From: a virus
Taxonomy: Duplodnaviria > Caudoviricetes
DNA: 30,969 nt
Direction: 5' to 3' (one strand)
Virus record (IMG/VR): IMGVR_UViG_3300011335_000270
Coordinates: 1 to 30,969 of that record
A program made the translations under genes and the position numbers. Below, one piece after another: positions 1 to 30,721 of this stretch. The notes under the pieces are model-generated. The model had not been told where the DNA came from and ran no database searches. It worked only from the letters and a program-made list of their open reading frames with translations. The stretch's first letter is position 1. Each line of letters starts with the position of its first letter.

Positions 1-947
1 TGGAGCTCACCGACCTGAAGGACATGGGCTTTGACTTAGACCTGACGGGCTTTAGCACCGACGAGATTGAGGCGCTGCTGGCTCCGGCAGGGACGGAGGG
101 GCTGACAGACGAGGATGCTGTGCCGGAGGTTCCTGAAGCCCCAGTGACCGTTTTGGGGGACGTTTGGCTGTTGGGCAAGCATCGGGTGATGTGTGGGGAC
201 TCGACCAGCATAGACGCGGTTGAGAAGCTGATGGATGGGCAGAAGGCAGATATGTTCTTTTCTGACCCGCCTTACGGGGTGTCCTACGCTGAAAAAAACA
301 AGAGTTTGAATGCAGTTTCCTTTGCCAACCGCATTCAAACTCCAATAATCAACGATCATATGACGGTCGATGAAACTGGCGAATTATGGTTTCAATCATT
401 TTCAAATGCGCATTTAGTAACAACCGATAAAGCGGTTTATTACATTTGTGGCACCCAAGGGGGCGAACTGATGATGATGATGATGATGATGATTCTAAAG
501 GCGGGTTGGCAGTTAAAGCACACAATGATTTGGGTTAAAAATAATCACGTTCTTGGGCGAATGGATTATCACTACAAGCACGAACCAATCATGTACGGCT
601 GGAAAGATGGCGAATCGCACAATTGGTACGGCGACCACAGTCAAATGTCAACTTGGGAAGTGGATAAACCCGTTAAATCAGCATTGCATCCAACCATGAA
701 GCCCGTGGAGTTGATGGAGAAAGCCATAGGAAATAGTACAAAAGCAGGAAATACTGTGCTTGATCTATTCGGCGGCTCCGGCTCCACCCTGATTGCTTGC
801 GAGAAAACAGGACGAATCAACCGCAGCATGGAGCTAGACCCCAAATACTGTGATGTAATCGTCCAACGCTGGCAGGAATTCACCGGACAGACAGCAACGC
901 TTGAGTCTGACGGTAAACCGTTTATTACATTGAAGAAAGCTGCTTAA
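1..947 (+). CDS. DNA methyltransferase (N6-A/N4-C family, beta-class motif order), 5'-truncated; probably a ParB-like N-terminal fusion
   Basis: Frame is open from position 3 (ELTDLKDMGFDLDLTGF...), so the true start lies upstream of the window. Catalytic DPPY precedes the SAM-binding VLDLFGGSGST; also HPTMKPV and ELDPKYCDVIVQRW. The acidic linker plus GDVWLLGKHRVMCGDST is typical of phage ParB-methylase fusions found upstream of terS. Confidence 0.9.
   Translation, partial: ELTDLKDMGFDLDLTGFSTDEIEALLAPAGTEGLTDEDAVPEVPEAPVTVLGDVWLLGKHRVMCGDSTSIDAVEKLMDGQKADMFFSDPPYGVSYAEKNKSLNAVSFANRIQTPIINDHMTVDETGELWFQSFSNAHLVTTDKAVYYICGTQGGELMMMMMMMILKAGWQLKHTMIWVKNNHVLGRMDYHYKHEPIMYGWKDGESHNWYGDHSQMSTWEVDKPVKSALHPTMKPVELMEKAIGNSTKAGNTVLDLFGGSGSTLIACEKTGRINRSMELDPKYCDVIVQRWQEFTGQTATLESDGKPFITLKKAA
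471..491 (+). repeat. (ATG)7 trinucleotide run encoding 7 consecutive Met
   Basis: ...ctg atgatgatgatgatgatgatg att..., read directly. Confidence 0.95.
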
Positions 948-966
948 GCTACTGGCTATAAAAAGA

Positions 967-1299
967 ATGTCATTTAAATCGCACCGTCCGACGGACAAAA
1001 CAAGGCAACAGGCGCAGAGTGCCAGCGGGCTCGGCTTGCCTCAGGATCAGATCGCTGCACTGATTGGCATCGCTCCTGACACACTAAGAAAGCACTACGA
1101 CCTCGAGCTTGGACTAGGCAAGGCGCAAGCAAGCGCTGCGGTGGCCAAGACGCTGTTCAACAAGGCTACGGTCGGCCAGGACACCACAGCCATGATCTGG
1201 TGGACTAAAGCGCAGATGCGGTGGGCTGAAACCCAAAGGCATGAGAACTCAGGGCCAGAGGGCGGGCCGCAAGAACATACCTTCCGGTGGCTTGAGTGA
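967..1299 (+). CDS. terS: Terminase small subunit (HTH)
   Basis: HTH-like GLPQDQIAALIGIAPDTLRKHY and TAMIWWTK; GTGA overlap with terL. Confidence 0.8.
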   Translation: MSFKSHRPTDKTRQQAQSASGLGLPQDQIAALIGIAPDTLRKHYDLELGLGKAQASAAVAKTLFNKATVGQDTTAMIWWTKAQMRWAETQRHENSGPEGGPQEHTFRWLE

Positions 1300-2630
1300 C
1301 GCTCCACGTCATACCCTATAAGCCTCGCCCGGCCTTTGCGCCGTTCCATAACCGCACTAAGCGGTGGTCGTGCCTTGTGGCGCACCGCAGGGCTGGTAAG
1401 ACCGTGGCGGCAATTAACGACCTTATCCGAGCAGCAGTCACCAGTAAAAGTCCCATGCCCCAGTTTGCCTACATAGCTCCGTTCCGCAGCCAGGCTAAAT
1501 CCGTGGCGTGGGACTACCTCAAGCACTTTTCGGCTACTGCGGCAGCCAGCACTAATGAGTCAGAGTTGACCGTGGATATGATAAACGGCAGCAAGGTTAG
1601 GTTGTTTGGCGCTGATAATGCAGATGCCATGCGTGGTTTAGGCTTTGATGGCATTTTCATGGATGAGTACGGCGACTTTAAGCCTAGCGTCTGGGGTAAC
1701 GTCATTCGTCCTTCACTTTCAGACTCAGACCGGCAAGGGTGGGCGGTGTTCGGCGGCACTCCTAAAGGCAAAAACCAGTTTTGGGACATAAAGCAGACCG
1801 CGGCAAGGCTTAGAGATGAGTGGTTCCTGTTGGAGCTGCCAGCTAGCAAGTCAGGTCTACTGCCGGCCGGCGAACTAGCCGCGGCGAGGGCGCAGCTCTC
1901 CAAAGACCAGTACGATCAAGAATATGAAATTTCATTCGAAGCGAGTATCTTAGGGGCGTTTTTCGGCACAGAGATGCGCGAGGCGGCAGAGCAAGGGCGT
2001 ATATGCCGCGTGGATTACCAGCCAGAAGTGCCCGTCCATACCGCTTGGGACTTAGGATACCGCGACGACACCGCTATTTGGTTCTATCAGGTCATCAGGG
2101 GCGAAATTCACATCATTGACTACTACGCGGTATCTGGCGCAAACATAGCAGAGCTGGCGGCGGTTATTACAAGCAAGCCTTACAACTATGGCAAGCATTA
2201 CCTACCGCATGACGCCAGGGCTAAGACGCTGGCGGCGCAAGGTAAGAGCATCATTGAGCAAATGGCTGAGTATCTGGGTATCAACAACCTAGCTATCGTG
2301 CCTGACTTAAGCGTTCAGGACGGCATCCAGGCGGTGCGCCAGATGCTGCCTAATACATGGTTTGATGCTGAGCGTTGCGACGAAGGCATGGAAGCGTTGC
2401 GCCAATACCAGCGCGAGTATGACGAGGACAAGAAAGCGTTTAGACAGACGCCGCGGCATGACTGGTGCTCGCATCCGGCCGACGCTATGCGAATGCTGGC
2501 AATAGCCTGGCGCGCCGAGCCGACCGTCAGGGCGCCGGATGTGGTCAAGCCGCTGATGGTCGGACCAGAAAACACCGTAACACTTAATGACATGTGGGCA
2601 ACCGCAAAATCAAGGAGCAAGAGATTATGA
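1296..2630 (+). CDS. terL: Terminase large subunit
   Basis: Walker A-like HRRAGKT, Walker B GIFMDE, coupling motif GTPKG, RNase H-like nuclease motifs AWDLG and HPADA. Confidence 0.95.
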   Translation: MTLHVIPYKPRPAFAPFHNRTKRWSCLVAHRRAGKTVAAINDLIRAAVTSKSPMPQFAYIAPFRSQAKSVAWDYLKHFSATAAASTNESELTVDMINGSKVRLFGADNADAMRGLGFDGIFMDEYGDFKPSVWGNVIRPSLSDSDRQGWAVFGGTPKGKNQFWDIKQTAARLRDEWFLLELPASKSGLLPAGELAAARAQLSKDQYDQEYEISFEASILGAFFGTEMREAAEQGRICRVDYQPEVPVHTAWDLGYRDDTAIWFYQVIRGEIHIIDYYAVSGANIAELAAVITSKPYNYGKHYLPHDARAKTLAAQGKSIIEQMAEYLGINNLAIVPDLSVQDGIQAVRQMLPNTWFDAERCDEGMEALRQYQREYDEDKKAFRQTPRHDWCSHPADAMRMLAIAWRAEPTVRAPDVVKPLMVGPENTVTLNDMWATAKSRSKRL

Positions 2631-2950
2631 GTGGCGTCAGTTATCCGTATAGGTATTCTTACGAACATGTCGCAGCAAGCCAAACCGCGCAGGTTTTGGG
2701 TACGGCGGGCGTAAAAGGCGATTATCTGCACCGCATTGTTTGCACAGTCACAACCGCGGCAACAGGTAACGTGGTTATTGTTGACGGGTCGGGAACGGGC
2801 ATTCTTACGCATACCATTTGCCCTGCGAGTCCGGGCGGCGGGATCGGTGTTTATAACGTCGAACTCAACGCGGTTAGCCAAGACGGTGCGTGGAAGATCA
2901 CGACCGGCGCAGGTGTCGAAGTCATGGCAATTGGCATATTTAGCGTATGA
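2627..2950 (+). CDS. Hypothetical beta-rich protein (107 aa), possibly virion-associated
   Basis: ATGA overlap with the terL stop favours ATG 2627 over the track's 2594; T/G/V-rich. Confidence 0.7.
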   Translation: MSGVSYPYRYSYEHVAASQTAQVLGTAGVKGDYLHRIVCTVTTAATGNVVIVDGSGTGILTHTICPASPGGGIGVYNVELNAVSQDGAWKITTGAGVEVMAIGIFSV

Positions 2951-3102
2951 ACAAGCCTGGACTTTATGCAAATATCCTTGCTAAACAGGAGCGCATAAAA
3001 GCGGGTTCTAACGAGAAAATGCGTAAGCCTGGAACACCCGGCGCACCGACTGCTGAAGCATTCCGTGAGTCGGCAAAGACTGCAAAGCCTGTGAAGAAGT
3101 GA
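2947..3102 (+). CDS. Small basic protein, 51 aa (MNKPGLYANILAKQERIKAGSNEKMRKPGTPGAPTAEAFRESAKTAKPVKK); not in ORF track
   Basis: Fills the gap exactly, with ATGA and GTGA overlaps at its ends; translated by hand. Confidence 0.8.
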   Translation: MNKPGLYANILAKQERIKAGSNEKMRKPGTPGAPTAEAFRESAKTAKPVKK

Positions 3103-3695
3103 TTGCTTGCGTCCTAAAGTCAGGTGGCGACTTCAAGCCAGCGCACGTTTACGCGTTGCAGGAGATGTGCGACCGTTTCCTGCCGGGCGAGGAGTTCATC
3201 TGCCTGACTGACATGGAGCTTGACTGCCCGACGCTGGCGCTCGACCACGACTGGCCGGGCTGGTGGTCGAAAATTGAGCTATTCCGGCTGCCGAGTGCGC
3301 TCTACATGGATTTGGATACCGTCTTGGTTGGCGACTGCACCGCAATGCTAGAGGCGGCAAGACCGCACGACTTTGTGATTATGCGCGACGTCTACCGCGG
3401 CAAAGCGGATCCGCGGGCGATGCAGAGCAGCCTGATGTGGTGGTCGAAGCCGCATCAGTTCATCTATGACGCATTTAAGGCGGGAGACCGCTACTGCGAC
3501 GGCGGCGACCAAGTCTATTTGGAGTGGGCGCTGCGTAACCATCCGGTCAAATACTGGCAAGACATTACGCCCGGCATTAAATCGTTCAAGGCCGACATAC
3601 TGCCGAACGGGGTGCAGGCCGAGGATCGTTTAATCGCGTTTCACGGCAAGCCGCGGCCGTGGGAGCAGACGAGGGTGCAATATGCGACTGCATGA
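3099..3695 (+). CDS. Putative GT-A fold glycosyltransferase (GT8-like)
   Basis: FICLTD, WWSKIELF, DxD motif LYMDLD, GGDQ and C-terminal AFHGKPRPW (HxxGxxKPW-like). Confidence 0.75.
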   Translation: MIACVLKSGGDFKPAHVYALQEMCDRFLPGEEFICLTDMELDCPTLALDHDWPGWWSKIELFRLPSALYMDLDTVLVGDCTAMLEAARPHDFVIMRDVYRGKADPRAMQSSLMWWSKPHQFIYDAFKAGDRYCDGGDQVYLEWALRNHPVKYWQDITPGIKSFKADILPNGVQAEDRLIAFHGKPRPWEQTRVQYATA

Positions 3696-4290
3696 GGGCT
3701 GGGCGGTTCCTGACGCTGACCAGTGCTGCATTCAAGCAGTTCTGGCCGAGGTGTGCGATTTGGGCGCTAGTCTGGATTTGTGCCGGGACTTTAGAACGGC
3801 GATACAAGCCGGTGGGAATGTGGGCGTGTATCCGGTGGCGTTGGCGCAGAAGTTCCAGCGCGTCTACACCGTGGAGCCTGACGCAGCAAACTACGAGGCG
3901 CTGGCGCTCAATACCGACAGTCACCCGCGAATAGTGATTCGGCGGGCTGCGTTTGGCATGGAACACGGCAAGGCGGCGATAGACCAGATATTCCCCGACA
4001 ACATCGGCGCGCACCAGATCAAAGAGGGCGCAGAGTTTGACGTCCTGCCAATTGACAGCTTGGGCGTCACCGACTGCGACCTGCTGCAGCTTGACGTTGA
4101 AGGCTCGGAGCACTTGGCCATTTTGGGCGCCATCTCAACCATCGAGGCGAGCTGGCCGGTGATTACGCTAGAGCTCAAAGGCCACGGCGAGCGATACGGC
4201 TACACCGACGATGACACGATCAACCTCTTGGCCGACATGGGATACAAGATTGCCGACCGGGTTAACAGGGATGTGATATTCACAAAATGA
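3682..4290 (+). CDS. FkbM-family SAM-dependent methyltransferase
   Basis: AIQAGGNVG (motif I), VYTVEPDAANY, LLQLDVEGSE, PVITLE. Confidence 0.85.
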   Translation: MRLHEGWAVPDADQCCIQAVLAEVCDLGASLDLCRDFRTAIQAGGNVGVYPVALAQKFQRVYTVEPDAANYEALALNTDSHPRIVIRRAAFGMEHGKAAIDQIFPDNIGAHQIKEGAEFDVLPIDSLGVTDCDLLQLDVEGSEHLAILGAISTIEASWPVITLELKGHGERYGYTDDDTINLLADMGYKIADRVNRDVIFTK

Positions 4291-7605: not shown

Positions 7606-8610
7606 ATGTCCGATTTAAATGAGATTGTGCCGGTAGAAAACCAAGACAGCCGCCGAGATATGCTTTCCCAGCAATTTGACGAGGTTGCCGAAGCGACGCC
7701 GGAACCGGCAAGGGTTGAACCGGCAAGGGCTGAAAAGCCGCGGGACGAGGCTGGCAAGTATGCCAAGCCTGCGCCGCAGGCAAAAGCAGAGCCCACCGAG
7801 CCGGCCGAGGAGCCGCTGTGGAAACGCCCGCCAGCGAGTTGGAAAAAAGATTACCACGAGGACTGGAAAACCGCACCGGCGCGCATTCAGGAGTATGCCT
7901 GGCAGCGTGAGAATGAGATGAAAGCTGGCGTTGAGCCGCTTATCAGTAAGGCGCAATTTGCCGATCAAATGCAGGAGGTGCTCAACCCTTACATGAACAC
8001 GATTCAAGGGCTGGGCATCGACGCGCCGGGCGCGGTCAAGGCTCTGATGGAGGCCGACCACGCGCTGCGCTACAGTAATCCGCAGGAAAAACGCCAATAT
8101 TTTGCTAGACTTGCACAATCTTACGGAGTAAATTTATCCGATATGGGCGACCAGCCACAACTGGCGCCGACTGATCCGACCATCTACGCACTGCAAAACG
8201 AGCTGAACAGCGTTCGTGGCGAAGTGCAAGGATGGAAGCAGGCACAGGAACAGCAGCAGAATCAGGCGCTTTTGGGTGAGATCAACAGTTTCAGCCAGAA
8301 AGCCGAGTATTTTGAAGAAGCGCGACCGGTAATGATCCAGCTCCTACAGAGCGGTGTGGCCAGCGACTTAGACGACGCGTATCAAAAGGCTTTACGCTTA
8401 GATCCGAACCTTTTTGAGAGTGTCCAGGCCAGCAAACAAGCTGAGCTAGACACGGCAAAGAGAGCGGCAGCAAATAAAGCTGCCAAGTCGGCGCGAGCGG
8501 CAGCGGTGAGCGTGCGAGGATCCACACCCGGAACCGTGACGAATACCAAAGCAAATGATCGCCGGGCTTTGCTGGCAGAGCAATTTGACAGCATGAGCGA
8601 CCGGCTCTGA
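7606..8610 (+). CDS. Capsid scaffolding protein (putative)
   Basis: Immediately before the capsid gene; acidic P/E-rich N-terminus, PPASWKK, helical Q/A-rich body; GGAG RBS. Confidence 0.75.
   Translation: MSDLNEIVPVENQDSRRDMLSQQFDEVAEATPEPARVEPARAEKPRDEAGKYAKPAPQAKAEPTEPAEEPLWKRPPASWKKDYHEDWKTAPARIQEYAWQRENEMKAGVEPLISKAQFADQMQEVLNPYMNTIQGLGIDAPGAVKALMEADHALRYSNPQEKRQYFARLAQSYGVNLSDMGDQPQLAPTDPTIYALQNELNSVRGEVQGWKQAQEQQQNQALLGEINSFSQKAEYFEEARPVMIQLLQSGVASDLDDAYQKALRLDPNLFESVQASKQAELDTAKRAAANKAAKSARAAAVSVRGSTPGTVTNTKANDRRALLAEQFDSMSDRL
7702..7731 (+). repeat. Two-copy 15-bp tandem repeat (EPARV EPARA)
   Basis: gaaccggcaagggtt gaaccggcaagggct. Confidence 0.85.
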
Positions 8611-8634
8611 TTAACTTGATTTGGAGATAATAAA

Positions 8635-8715
8635 ATGGCTTTTGCCAATTCTTCGATCAGCGACATCATCGCGACTAACATTCAAAGTCGTAGCGGTGAG
8701 CTGGCCGACAACGTT
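8635..8715 (+). CDS. Major capsid protein, exon 1 (MAFANSSISDIIATNIQSRSGELADNV)
   Basis: Strong RBS (ggagataataaaATG); 27 codons, then an in-frame TAA at the intron start; joins exon 2 in frame as ...ELADNV|TNNNALL.... Confidence 0.9.
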
Positions 8716-9409
8716 TAACATTAGACGTTAAAAAACTCCGTGAATTCGGTGAAAAGCTGAGATGCCAACACCGAGCCAAGCGGCGCAGTTAAAAGGGCGC
8801 TGAAGGTGTAACGACTAGGGCGATGCGGAAGCAAAACCCCACGAGCGCGGAGCGCAAGTATTAACCACAGAGGGGAATCCCAAATGGTAACGATCTACGG
8901 ATTGGAAGATGCGAGCACTGGGGCAGCGTATATTGGCTGCACAGCAGGCAAACCGGGTAAAAGGATGCGAGAGCACCGAAGCCTGTTAAAAGCCGGTAAG
9001 CATACTTCTAGAAGGTTGCAAGCAGCGTGGAACGATCACGCCGGACTGTTTCAAATGAAAGTGCTTGAAACAATGCCGGACACGGTTTCAGTGATTGAGA
9101 AGCGCGAACGCGAAATAGCTTGGATGCGGCAATATGGCGCGCAAGGTCTTTTGTTAAATGAAAATGAAATTTCATTTAGACCACCGCCAGGGGCCCCAGC
9201 AAAAGCAGCAGCGGCAAGGGTAGCGAATGGCTACCGGCCCAGCGCGGAAAGCAACTTAAAACGTAGATTGGCGCAGCTTGGAAAGCCGAAAATGCATGGC
9301 GCAAAGATTAGCGCCACCAAGCGAGCGAAAAACTTGCGATGAGATAGTCTGCTCTGCACATAAAAGGAATGTGCAGGTTTCGGATAAAGAGCCGAAACAT
9401 AACACTAGG
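8716..9409 (+). mobile_element. Group I self-splicing intron (694 nt) in the major capsid gene
   Basis: P1: exon AACGUU pairs with GACGUU (8724-8729), giving the U8715.G8724 wobble. P3 CUCCGUG (8736-42)/CGCGGAG (8846-52). P4 UCGGUG/CACCGA. P6a CGGCGC/GCGCUG. P7 GACUA (8813-17)/UAGUC (9345-49). P8 CGCAAGU (8853-59)/ACUUGCG (9332-38). Two P9 hairpins (9354-9376, 9377-9398). Terminal G9409; removal restores the reading frame. Confidence 0.92.
8884..9342 (+). CDS. Intron-encoded GIY-YIG homing endonuclease
   Basis: TIY-x10-YIG motif, KRMREH (conserved Arg), EREIAWM (catalytic Glu), LLN, and a basic NUMOD3-like C-terminus; sits in the P8 loop. Confidence 0.88.
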   Translation: MVTIYGLEDASTGAAYIGCTAGKPGKRMREHRSLLKAGKHTSRRLQAAWNDHAGLFQMKVLETMPDTVSVIEKREREIAWMRQYGAQGLLLNENEISFRPPPGAPAKAAAARVANGYRPSAESNLKRRLAQLGKPKMHGAKISATKRAKNLR

Positions 9410-10330
9410 ACAAATAACAACGCGCTTCTGCGCCGGCTGAAAGAACGCGGAAACGTTAAAACGTTTTCCGGCGGTAACGTCATCCTGCAAGAGGTAATGT
9501 ACAACGACAGCACGACTAACAATACTAATAGCTACAGTGGCTATGAAGTTTTGAACGTCAGTCAAAACAGCCCGATCAGTGCGGCGCAGTTTGGTATTAC
9601 TCAGTATGCTGCCGCGGTATCGATCAGCGGTCTGGAGATGATTCAGAACAGCGGCAAGGAAGCGATTATCGACCTGCTAGACGGTCGTATGAACGTGGCC
9701 GAAGCGCAGCTGGCTAACCGCATTTCCGGCGACATCTATTTGGATGGAACGGGCAACAGCGGCAAGAACATCACCGGTCTTGCGGCGGCTGTTCCTGATG
9801 CACCTTCGTCCGGCACTTACGGCGGTATCAACCGCGCCAGCTATTCTTTTTGGCAATCGGTTGCTTACTCTGGCGTAACGAACGGTGGCGCTGCTGTAAC
9901 GGCATCCAACATCCAGCAATATATGGATTCGGTTGCTGTTCAGCTGATTCGCGGAACTGATAAACCGGATCTGATTGTTGCTGACAATAACTACTACCGT
10001 CTGTATCTGCAATCGCTGCAATCGATTCAGCGCATTTCTGATTCGGGTTCGTCAATGGCTGGTGCTGGTTTTGCCTCGCTGAAGTACTACGGCGCGGGCA
10101 TGGCATCGGACGTTGTGCTCGATGGCGGTATCGGTTCGGCTGCAACGGCGAATCACATGTGGTTCCTCAATACGAAATACATTTTCTTCCGGCCGCACGT
10201 TGACCGTAATTTTGTACCGATCGGCGGCGAACGGCAAGCCGTCAACCAGGACGCCATCGTTAAATTGATCGGCTGGGCGGGCAATCTTTGCTCTAGCGGC
10301 CCGCAATTTTGCGGCGTGCTGATTGCATAA
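9410..10330 (+). CDS. Major capsid protein, exon 2 (spliced product 333 aa)
   Basis: TNNNALLRRLKERGNVKTFSGG...IYLDGTGNSGKNITGL...MWFLNTKY; position after scaffold. The track's N-terminal 44 aa from 9278 are intron sequence. Confidence 0.9.
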   Translation, partial: TNNNALLRRLKERGNVKTFSGGNVILQEVMYNDSTTNNTNSYSGYEVLNVSQNSPISAAQFGITQYAAAVSISGLEMIQNSGKEAIIDLLDGRMNVAEAQLANRISGDIYLDGTGNSGKNITGLAAAVPDAPSSGTYGGINRASYSFWQSVAYSGVTNGGAAVTASNIQQYMDSVAVQLIRGTDKPDLIVADNNYYRLYLQSLQSIQRISDSGSSMAGAGFASLKYYGAGMASDVVLDGGIGSAATANHMWFLNTKYIFFRPHVDRNFVPIGGERQAVNQDAIVKLIGWAGNLCSSGPQFCGVLIA

Positions 10331-10896: not shown

Positions 10897-11691
10897 ATGG
10901 TCGAAGCCGTATTAGATGTTGTTGGAAACACACTCCCCAGCGTAATGCTGGGGAATGTGAAACTGTCTTGCGAAAGGCAGTTGACTTGGTTTGACTTCGA
11001 TACGGAGCCAAACGGCGAAAGCATTTGCATTGTTGGCGGTGCGCCGAGTCTAAATGAGTCGGTGCACCAGCTAATAATTCGACACCAGAATGGCGCTAAA
11101 ATCTGGTCTGTAAACGGATCCTATGACTGGCTACTTGCCCGCGGCATCGTGCCGGATGGGCATGTCATGCTGGATGCTAGGCCAGAAAATGTGCGGTTTC
11201 TGAAGAATCCAAAGCTGGAGACTCAGTTCTACATTGCCAGCCAATGCGATCCTTGCATATTCGACGCTTTAGACGGGTTTAACGTCGATTTGGTGCACGT
11301 ACAGACCGAAGGGGTCTACGAGTATCTGGAGAGCGAAAGAGCGCGCCCTGTGCACCTTATGGGCGGGTTTACGACGGTCGGCATGTTGGCGATGATTCTA
11401 GCCAAGCTCAAGGGCTATCGGCAGATTTATCTGTTTGGCATGGATTCCAGTTATTCAGAGGGCGAGCACCACGTTTACAAGCAGGAATCAAACGACGGCG
11501 AGAACGTAATAACTGCGACTATCCACGAAACAAAATACCAGGCGGCGCCATGGATGTGCCAGCAAGTGCGGGACTTTCAAAACCTTGCCCGCGAGTTTGC
11601 GCAGGAAGATGTTGTAATTGAGGTTTGCGGTCCCGGCTTATTACACGCAATGGCGAAAGCCATGTCTTATCCACTAACTCAAAGGATTTAA
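10897..11691 (+). CDS. DUF115/MptE-like (Maf/Cst-II-like) transferase
   Basis: ICIVGGAPSL, IWSVN, GIVPDGHVMLD, GFTTVG, KGYRQIYLFGMDSSY...H: the motif series of the DUF115/Maf/Cst-II Rossmann-like fold. Confidence 0.7.
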   Translation: MVEAVLDVVGNTLPSVMLGNVKLSCERQLTWFDFDTEPNGESICIVGGAPSLNESVHQLIIRHQNGAKIWSVNGSYDWLLARGIVPDGHVMLDARPENVRFLKNPKLETQFYIASQCDPCIFDALDGFNVDLVHVQTEGVYEYLESERARPVHLMGGFTTVGMLAMILAKLKGYRQIYLFGMDSSYSEGEHHVYKQESNDGENVITATIHETKYQAAPWMCQQVRDFQNLAREFAQEDVVIEVCGPGLLHAMAKAMSYPLTQRI

Positions 11692-25277: not shown

Positions 25278-25856
25278 TCAATAAAACTCCTTTAAAATTG
25301 GCGCGCGTTTTTTGTCGCGCAGCTTTCGCAAAGCCTTTGCTTCTATTTGCCGAACGCGCTCTTTATGAACACCTTGAATTTTGCCAACTTCATCAAGGGT
25401 AGAATCATTGCTAAATCTTTCGTGCAGCACTTCTTTTTCTCGCGGGTTAAGCGTTCCTAAAACCTCATTTACTATTGCTGATGTTTCTGCCGCCAATAAT
25501 AAATCTTCAGGTGATGGCAGGTAGTCGTTTCGGTTTTTCTGTTCGAGCAAATGCTGCACGAGGTTTGCATCTATAGCCCGTTCTCCAATATTTGTTTTGA
25601 GTTTGATAGTCAATTGCTGCTCAGTCCAAAGGTCAGTGGGTGCCGCGCCAAGCACCTCCATAACCAGCTTTGCTTTCTGCGAAAACTCTCCGCTTTGCAA
25701 GATGGGCGCTTCTCGCATTGCAACAAGATTATTTATGCTGCCCGAACCAAGCTCGCAAGCCCGTTCAAACTCAGCAACCGAAACGTAACCTTGCGTTTCA
25801 ATTGCAGATAAAAGCAAGTTATTGCGAACAGAAACCTTGAGTCTGAATTCTTTCAT
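25278..25856 (-). CDS. Fusion of an N-terminal XRE-like HTH and a C-terminal sigma-70 region 4 domain
   Basis: LNPREKEVLHERF...TLDEVGKIQGVHKERVRQIEAKALRKLR closely matches RpoD region 4.2; no region 2 is recognisable. ATG 25856 overlaps the upstream stop. Confidence 0.8.
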   Translation of the reverse strand: MKEFRLKVSVRNNLLLSAIETQGYVSVAEFERACELGSGSINNLVAMREAPILQSGEFSQKAKLVMEVLGAAPTDLWTEQQLTIKLKTNIGERAIDANLVQHLLEQKNRNDYLPSPEDLLLAAETSAIVNEVLGTLNPREKEVLHERFSNDSTLDEVGKIQGVHKERVRQIEAKALRKLRDKKRAPILKEFY

Positions 25857-26104
25857 TTTCTGCGGTTCCACTTTTCGATGGCCAGCTCAACAGACTGGGC
25901 GCCGTCCTGGTGCGGTCCGATCGCCATGCACTCCGGGCAGCAGATCGCAATGATGCCGATCTCGATCTCGTCAACCTCGATGTCATCATGCCCGCAGAAC
26001 GGGCAAGCATTGATTACCGTCTTGCGCTCCTCGGCTCGGCTGGCCAGGTAATCCTCGCGCTCGGTATATTCGCGGTCTAATTGGTTAAATGCGTTGCTGC
26101 TCAT
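25853..26104 (-). CDS. Lar-like (restriction alleviation family) zinc-ribbon protein
   Basis: CPFCG...CPECMAIGP...AIEKWNRR. Confidence 0.75.
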   Translation of the reverse strand: MSSNAFNQLDREYTEREDYLASRAEERKTVINACPFCGHDDIEVDEIEIGIIAICCPECMAIGPHQDGAQSVELAIEKWNRRK

Positions 26105-29516: not shown

Positions 29517-29690
29517 ATGTATATTATGGTCAAAGAGGCCGCAACCAGGCTAAAAGTCAGTCGACAATGGGTCAATACCCTGATAAATCAAGGTAAAGTG
29601 ACCACCAAGATGGTGGTCGGCCGGCGCGTGATCGTTGCGGATCGCCTGTTTTTGGCACTGGAACGAGGGCGCCGGAAGGCGGGGAAATGA
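29517..29690 (+). CDS. Small HTH DNA-binding protein (Xis/HTH_17-like), 57 aa
   Basis: VKEAATRLKVSRQWVNTLINQGKV; AGAGGG RBS before ATG 29517. The track start at 29361 would run through the promoter region. Confidence 0.75.
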   Translation: MYIMVKEAATRLKVSRQWVNTLINQGKVTTKMVVGRRVIVADRLFLALERGRRKAGK

Positions 29691-30721
29691 TTGAATTTGG
29701 GGATTGCCGAGAAACCATGCGGCGATGGGCAGAGCAGGGAGTTAAGGCTCAGACATGCGTGACTTCGCCGCCGTACTGGGGCTTGCGGGACTACGGGCAC
29801 GTGGGGCAACTCGGACTCGAATCCACGCCCGAAGAATACGTTGCCAAGATGGTTGCGGTATTCCGCGAAGTCCGGCGCGTATTGCGGGATGACGGAACGC
29901 TGTGGCTGAATCTTGGTGACTCGTACGCAAGAGAGGGCGGTAACGGTGCTGGCGTGTCTCGTCATTGGGACGGACGAGAATCAGACCCCGGCGGTCAGCA
30001 CGATAAACGCCCGAACGCTTCCAAGATTGGTCTTAAACAAAAAGACCTCGTGGGCATCCCGTGGCGCGTCGCTTTCGCACTGCAAGCCGACGGCTGGTAT
30101 CTGCGCCAAGACATCATCTGGCACAAGCCGAACCCTATGCCTGAGAGTGTTCAGGACAGATGCACGAAGGCGCACGAATACATCTTTCTGTTGAGCAAAT
30201 CGCAGAAATACTATTACGATGCAGATGCTATTGCGGAGCCGGTTACCGACAGCACCGCAATAAGATTGCTTCAGGACATAGACAATCAAAGAGGTAGTGA
30301 CCGTGTGCCGAATAAAAAAAACGGGACGATGAAAGCCGTTGGGGGCAAAAAGTTTACCTCTGACATGGGCGGTGGTGGAACAACCTTTGTCGGGCATTCT
30401 GGATACACCAAAGCAGATGGAACAAGCTCTCTCAAAGCAACGCGCAACAAGCGCAGCGTCTGGACTGTGACCACCAAGCCATACAAAGGCGCACACTTCG
30501 CCACCTTCCCGCCTGACTTGATAAATCCATGCATCCTAGCGGGTGCGCCTGCTGGTGGTGTGGTGTTGGATCCGTTCATGGGCAGCGGCACAACGGCAGC
30601 GGTGGCTGTTTTGAATGGTAGAAACTATTTGGGGTGCGAACTAAATCCGGCATACAAGGAATTGCAGGATGAGCGTATACGAAACGCACATTTAGAAACC
30701 GCACAAATGGAGTTAATCTAA
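29687..30721 (+). CDS. DNA methyltransferase (probably N4-cytosine, beta class)
   Basis: VTSPPYW, WLNLGD, IIWHKPNPMPES, HFATFP, VLDPFMGSGTT. Confidence 0.92.
   Translation: MIEFGDCRETMRRWAEQGVKAQTCVTSPPYWGLRDYGHVGQLGLESTPEEYVAKMVAVFREVRRVLRDDGTLWLNLGDSYAREGGNGAGVSRHWDGRESDPGGQHDKRPNASKIGLKQKDLVGIPWRVAFALQADGWYLRQDIIWHKPNPMPESVQDRCTKAHEYIFLLSKSQKYYYDADAIAEPVTDSTAIRLLQDIDNQRGSDRVPNKKNGTMKAVGGKKFTSDMGGGGTTFVGHSGYTKADGTSSLKATRNKRSVWTVTTKPYKGAHFATFPPDLINPCILAGAPAGGVVLDPFMGSGTTAAVAVLNGRNYLGCELNPAYKELQDERIRNAHLETAQMELI

Follow-up and report, generated by a model that had tools for sequence, protein, structure and literature searches.

The window analysed here is a linear virus record of 31 kb (30,969 nt, 88% complete) in which terminase, portal, head and tail genes follow one another in order. 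The major capsid gene within it is interrupted, which raises the question of whether the insertion is a complete group I intron whose removal restores the capsid protein and, if so, how it came to lie in this gene. There is a high probability that a complete group I intron splits the gene after codon 27 and likely self-excises to leave a 333-aa protein, and that relatives lacking it likely acquire it through the action of its GIY-YIG endonuclease. The intron has defined boundaries, a group I fold, an intact open reading frame (ORF) and a patchy distribution at a single site.

The Capsid Gene and Its Product

The product of exon 2 matches the PHROG 9953 major head protein (E 2.4e-96), the match beginning at profile position 29, and is 50% identical to the major virion protein of Myxococcus phage Mx8. 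Terminase and portal genes upstream and a virion protein gene downstream, all recognized by PHROG profiles, place the gene in the head module; profile match and position together identify an Mx8-like major head protein. An in-frame TAA (8716-8718) lies directly 3′ of exon 1. The earlier note, made from the letters of this DNA, had ended a 27-codon exon with a strong ribosome-binding site (RBS) at U8715, and the collinearity with relatives and the register of P1 agree on that end. It had also joined 8715 to 9410 to give a 333-aa capsid protein (27 and 306 codons) and proposed an alignment with intron-less homologs. The intact protein is likewise 333 aa long. A part-scan gave 596 viral capsid relatives; among the best 80, which were inspected, 70 are intron-less with both peptides contiguous and collinear with the joined product, 9 have the intron at the site and 1 is cut by a contig end. 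As the note expected, gene callers misplace the N terminus: the protein collection lists a shortened, 277-aa product with its start at 9497, which is a gene call and not an observed protein. Recognizing the intron mends the capsid annotation in a common family of uncultured phages, where gene callers give intron-bearing genes an incorrect start.

Table 1. Features of the interrupted capsid gene (positions in the window)
Feature	Position	Strand	Evidence
Tract identical to L001/L002, 937 nt, likely homing co-conversion tract	8497..9433	+	comparison with relatives
Shine-Dalgarno GGAG of capsid gene	8623..8626	+	8 nt upstream of ATG; read from sequence
Capsid exon 1, 27 codons; last base U8715 is the 5′ splice site	8635..8715	+	collinearity with relatives
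P1 with U8715·G8724 wobble	8710..8729	+	wobble in 23/23; register test
Group I intron, 694 nt; opens with in-frame TAA, closes with G9409	8716..9409	+	fold, covariation, collinearity
5′ core	8736..8852	+	pairing and covariation (23 homologs)
P3	8736-8742/8846-8852	+	4/7 pairs changed on both sides, 100% paired
P4	8745-8751/8769-8775	+	1/7 pairs changed on both sides
P5, P6	within 8736..8852	+	pair; invariant in alignment
P6a	8781-8786/8797-8802	+	6/6 pairs changed on both sides
P7, 5′ strand	8811-8817	+	invariant
P7.1	8818-8839	+	present, compensated
P8, loop contains ORF	8853-8859/9332-9338	+	5/7 pairs changed on both sides
Purine-rich RBS AGAGGGG of endonuclease ORF	8869..8875	+	sequence; putative function
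GIY-YIG endonuclease ORF, 152 aa	8884..9342	+	PF01541, PHROG homing endonucleases, I-TevI likeness, dN/dS
3′ core, terminal G9409	9345..9409	+	pairing, covariation, folding
P7, 3′ strand, G8813-C9349 pair	9345-9350	+	
P9.0	9352-9353/9407-9408	+	paired in 37/38 site-27 sequences
P9	9354-9376	+	
P9.1	9377-9398	+	
Capsid exon 2, 306 codons and stop	9410..10330	+	PHROG 9953 match; Mx8 likeness

Fold and Splice Sites of the Intron

The fold was assessed in an alignment of the window intron with 22 of the 38 distinct introns found at this site (site 27). Pairing is kept in 96.2% of the alignment cells and 28 of 67 pairs show compensatory changes; none of 500 shuffles did as well, a figure that is not a probability for sequences that are related. 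When the structure was slid along the same alignment as a control, pairing dropped to 31%–39%. Most of the covariation comes from P3, P6a, P7.1, P8 and P9.1. P5, P6 and P7 are invariant, so that P7 is without covariation support, and P9, partly misaligned, is 81% paired. The P3-P7 pseudoknot with a G-C guanosine-binding pair beside a bulge is present, as are the U·G wobble of P1, the P4-P5-P6 domain, P8, and the terminal G with P9.0. Every pair that the earlier note had assigned to P1, P3, P4, P6a, P7, P8 and the two P9 hairpins was found where it had been placed. Its group I reading stands, but it had omitted P5, P6, P7.1 and the 152-aa GIY-YIG ORF in loop L8. Single-sequence folding gave a weak signal for the 5′ half (z −1.19) and a good one for the 3′ part (z −3.07), and about three pairs at most are possible, by eye, in a P10 with the 3′ exon.

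Protein collinearity alone fits cuts at U8715/G9409 and at U8714/G9408, each of which gives Val, and the spliced aligner chose the latter. The cut is placed at U8715/G9409 because P1 there stacks six exon-side pairs, with the wobble in all 23 sequences, against at most three in the alternative; the sites one base upstream are ruled out by P1 and by P9.0. The CU/AG pairing of P9.0 that the note had used to set G9409 as the last base is swapped on both sides between introns of the same class, being CU/AG at site 27, AA/UU at site 71 and AG/CU at site 145. Although the aligner imposes a terminal G, the restoration of the intron-less protein by removal of 8716-9409 is independent of that constraint. 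The insertion can thus be called a group I intron with both splice sites and the 333-aa product as first read, a conclusion supported by these comparisons.

A covariance-model search, also proposed in the note, found the intron in part: because the ORF keeps the strands of P7 far apart, Rfam RF00028 matched the 5′ half only and, at 27.4 bits, stayed below its gathering score of 50. ORF-less introns with the same core scored 64.2, 53.3 and 46.7 bits with this model (threshold 50), and four introns of a second class (class B, below) gave 20.8 bits or no match. P7.1, a mark of group I subgroup IA, is present between P7 and P3. The intron class also resembles the polymerase introns of Bastillevirinae, most of which have been placed in IA (PMC11878797), and the window intron is a candidate member of IA (IA2/IA3). 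No further core motif was found on either strand of the 30,969 nt by Rfam and core-motif searches, and blastn of the window intron against cultured phages gave no match.

By analogy with group I chemistry, free guanosine bound at the G8813-C9349 pair would attack after U8715, and the freed end of exon 1 would then attack after G9409 and join the exons. Translation of an unspliced message would end after 27 residues, at the UAA with which the intron begins.

Contigs from RNA Libraries

Seven of 24 listed RNA runs (X1–X7) were examined as assembled contigs. X1 and X2, from freshwater and lake libraries, contain nearly the whole intron. In X2, X4 and X7 the exons are joined, but with the A found in intron-less alleles, and these joints were rejected as evidence of splicing; a loose T-form end in X4 was too short to use, and the contigs of X1, X3 and X5 held no joint. 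X6, alone among the seven, has a single contig (depth 5.6) that joins 8715 to 9410 exactly with T. Exon 1 of that contig differs from the window at five positions, as in the intron-bearing L083 and L086, and its upstream 30 nt are those of intron-bearing L086 and also of intron-less L007. The same run holds intron pieces of L005/L086 type. Exon 2 of the contig matches none of the genomes compared. The X6 joint fits a spliced message and is a hint of splicing; an intron-less GTT allele would look alike, and the libraries may hold DNA.

A GIY-YIG Endonuclease Encoded in Loop L8

The 152-aa ORF scores above the cut-off for Pfam PF01541, matches a PHROG homing-endonuclease profile and, among PDB entries, is most similar to the catalytic domain of I-TevI (E 1.4e-5). 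Its 3′ end overlaps the 3′ strand of P8, with the stop codon in J8/7. The Tyr, Gly, Arg, His, Glu and Asn positions of a GIY-YIG domain are present; in particular, Y5, Y16, G18, R27, H31, H40, E77 and N92, the likely catalytic residues, are conserved in 37 of 38 rows, the exception, L187, having been read in the wrong frame, and R27 and E77 align with the I-TevI positions mutated to alanine in PDB 1ln0 and 1mk0. The dN/dS ratio is 0.07–0.14 in 32 of 37 pairs, 0.20 in one and undefined in four. The ORF has 49 relatives; 42 of these are flanked by the two capsid exons at this site, contig ends truncate the other 7, and none is in another gene. The intron is likely of the mobile type, carrying a predicted homing endonuclease gene that spreads it among related phages.

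Analogous to GIY-YIG homing elsewhere, the endonuclease would be translated from its own RBS in L8 and, when two phages infect the same cell, would cleave the capsid gene that lacks the intron. The break would then be repaired with the intron-bearing genome as template, which would copy in the intron with flanking exon sequence and bring the U needed by the splice site.

The RBS region (8872-8881) can form a short GGG/CCC hairpin, kept in most relatives, which may damp translation. At L190:1909-2715 the site-27 intron is 807 nt long and its GIY-YIG ORF extends to 180 aa; the exon end there is altered, and the guide is altered to match.

Traces of Probable Homing

The identical tract in Table 1 consists of the intron with 219 nt of upstream and 24 nt of downstream flank. 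Elsewhere in 6.9 kb, L001/L002 differ from the window at 451 positions (7.5% of flanking bases), against none within the tract; the chance of a 937-nt identity at the flanking rate is about 1e-32. In the five closest relatives, dS is 0, 0.13, 0.15, 0.27 and 0.27 for the ORF versus 0.25, 0.55, 0.68, 1.15 and 1.08 for exon 2, a gap that shrinks in distant pairs (L104: 1.05 versus 1.09). All 39 intron-bearing alleles have GTT as codon 27, against 7 of 70 without the intron; such a bias would be expected whether the intron brings the required U along or keeps it in place. Co-conversion and its asymmetry have been described (PMC3984707). The identical tract likely marks a recent homing event, with cleavage presumed from the pattern of the sequences, and would be a natural record of it.

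CNNNG is the motif of the I-TevI target. A CNNNG motif 23–27 nt upstream of the site was dropped as a candidate, since such a motif often arises by chance and Thr-codon alleles lack it.

Alternative Explanations

The intron might splice and yet spread by ordinary recombination, its ORF being kept for another job such as aiding RNA folding or damaging competitor genomes without homing. Mosaic genomes would favor this, as the unmatched exon 2 of the X6 contig illustrates; purifying selection on the ORF is silent on which function is kept, and intron nucleases used against competitor phages have been described (PMC11878797). Ordinary recombination, however, fits poorly with an identical tract centered on the intron with short asymmetric flanks, with an ORF younger than exon 2 in five close pairs, and with catalytic-domain residues that are kept. 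This explanation is therefore considered improbable, and homing by the endonuclease is preferred.

The remaining explanations deny the intron a useful role or question the record itself. Were splicing of no use, translation of the capsid protein would begin inside exon 2 (at ATG 9497, giving 277 aa), or the phage would be defective. The 277-aa entry would agree with an internal start, but it is a gene call only, and exon 1 encodes protein 93%–100% identical to that of intron-less alleles in close relatives, with its RBS kept. The core covaries, moreover, and there are 38 distinct intron-bearing sequences, which makes this reading very improbable. Smaller still is the chance that the insertion or the identical tract is an artifact of assembly: the record is an incomplete metagenome contig, yet the same intron occurs at the same site in dozens of independent contigs as well as in those of runs X1 and X2, and an artifact would bear on the argument from the identical tract and not on the intron. 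A spliced, homing intron remains the preferred reading.

Introns across the Capsid Family

With the ORF, the junction and two core motifs as queries, and spliced alignment of what they found, group I introns of this capsid family were placed at nine sites, given as codon and phase: 27+0, 52+2, 61+1, 71+1, 82+2, 145+0, 150+2 and 309+0, with 13+0 added by L029. The aligner imposes the U and G ends at these sites; independent of it, a U·G-based P1 of 4–8 pairs is found in typical members at each of eight sites. The count excludes L107, L137, L147, L167 and L188, which are divergent or truncated (spliced alignment score <85), and six rows were skipped. Introns at sites 27, 71, 82 and 145 have P7.1 (class A), and those at sites 52, 61, 150 and 309 are without it (class B). 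All are ORF-less and 231–279 nt long except at sites 13 and 27. One capsid gene, in L106, holds three introns, and L163, L168, L471 and L509 hold two or more.

In L029 (1860-2716) an 818-nt intron follows codon 13, with an opposite-strand HNH-like ORF (1898-2470) in the loop of P1. L147 (reverse strand, about 850-3030) encodes a divergent capsid homolog in which four or more class-A-like cores lie near codons 21, 71, 125 and 330; the 3′ parts of these cores are near-copies of one another.

The same 232-nt ORF-less intron lies at codon 150 in L105 (2507-2738), L471 and L509 and at codon 52 in L163, L168 and L313, and the differences between the copies at the two sites cluster in the last hairpin. 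The site-150 intron, present in three contigs, nests within the site-52 group (support 100/95), with 209–211 of 232 bases in common (∼90% identity). A metagenome scan for site 150 gave 119 loci, 2 of them real and the other 117 without capsid and without core. Both sites end CCU within a Leu codon, and the GGGGUC guide pairs five bases at each, in registers one base apart. This is circumstantial evidence for RNA-guided movement between sites 52 and 150, with DNA-level routes as the alternative.

Core Motifs beyond the Capsid Family

The two core motifs were also used outside the family. The first 80 loci of each scan were taken; 14 and 15 fell in the capsid family, 9 had no usable frame, 11 duplicates were dropped and 111 were classified by one flank, while 84 loci with short flanks were left out. 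In this biased sample, 54 of the 111 loci adjoin major head genes (PHROG 1328, 1357, 283, 267 and 334) versus 8 at DNA-metabolism genes (DNA polymerase, 7; ribonucleotide reductase, 1). The other flanks are tape measure (15), endonuclease (5), terminase (4), portal (2), scaffold (2), glycosyltransferase (1) and no match (20). At 54 loci the second flank was also checked: the same capsid family appeared on either side in 25 (two at E 0.011), capsid lay downstream of scaffold in 2, and the second flank gave an endonuclease in 8 and nothing in 19. The motifs were derived from capsid introns, 14 and 21 of 64 parts were covered and contigs were not dereplicated by species. The scan shows that capsid introns are common; it gives no overall share among group I introns.

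At several of these loci the capsid intron carries an HNH or endonuclease VII ORF 5′ of its core. In the GenBank phage record L574 (MW202674.1, 16569-18084), the annotation splits a P22-like coat gene into two CDSs and passes over the class-B core between them.

A broader proposal is that major capsid genes, and not DNA-metabolism genes, are the main home of both intron lineages in uncultured phages and that ORF-less introns reach new capsid sites via RNA. It is tentative and, at present, rather doubtful; if true, the very abundant capsid message would be a target of reverse splicing in phages much as ribosomal RNA is elsewhere.

Comparison with Known Introns

The earlier note took DNA-metabolism genes as the usual home of phage introns, and that preference is still described in print (PMC11878797; PMC12350094), but the capsid site is less unusual than was implied. 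The major capsid gene of mycobacteriophage LittleE has a probable group I intron that is spliced in vivo, as reported from RT-PCR and N-terminal sequencing, and a 156-bp part of it is 98% identical to a tail-gene intron (PMC3706429). As in the window, an endonuclease ORF lies within the capsid intron; as described there, LittleE differs in its host group, in having its ORF, of a type other than GIY-YIG, on the opposite strand, in a structure that was not resolved and in having one site. The opposite-strand arrangement in L029 resembles that of LittleE. The major head protein gene of Lactococcus phage Tuc2009 is also cited as having a group I intron (PMC3706429; PMC2504315). In crAss-like Delta and Zeta phages, group I introns occur in MCP genes, one of which is in five fragments; these are large gut phages, unlike the virus of the window, and the account reports detection via endonuclease domains, not RNA structure (PMC7886860). 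Capsid group I introns were thus already known, and what is added here is a probable trace of homing, a family with nine sites and an intron found at two of them. A search of the literature, thin on subscription journals, found no report of introns in the Mx8-like capsid family.

Other systems share single features with the window intron. The ORF of the SPO1 intron also lies in L8 and overlaps P8, and that of I-TevI sits in P6 of the T4 td intron (PMC3073962). I-TevI shares the GIY-YIG catalytic domain (PDB 1mk0, 1ln0); unlike it, the 152-aa protein has a short C-terminal part. DNA polymerase introns of the Bastille/SPO1 type (I-BasI) match the ORF-less intron of L168 (site 145) at 68%–85% over much of its length, and differ from the window intron in host gene and in carrying an HNH ORF. 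Orf142 of Staphylococcus phage Twort carries three introns. As in the capsid family, a single late structural gene holds several group I introns, with exon skipping described in Twort (PMC11878797); orf142 is, however, a tail tube gene, and here nine sites and two intron classes are spread across a capsid family. Why phage introns seem confined to genes of nucleotide and DNA metabolism has been posed as a central question (PMC11878797). The family-wide picture bears on it, since in the biased sample here introns are not so confined. Nine sites, a two-site intron and a homing trace together make two open questions testable.

The Rest of the Window

Matches in the genome collection (n = 24, mostly short contigs) fall in bins of many unrelated phyla, and therefore no host is named. 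Scans of the window for promoters and terminators gave results at chance level. A DNA methyltransferase ORF with a run of seven methionines lies at 24-947 and a second methyltransferase at 29687-30721. An FkbM-type methyltransferase, a neighboring gene and an MptE-like gene lie in the virion module (3099-4290 and 10897-11691), perhaps for virion modification, and the minus strand encodes a protein with a sigma-70 region 4 domain at 25278-25871.
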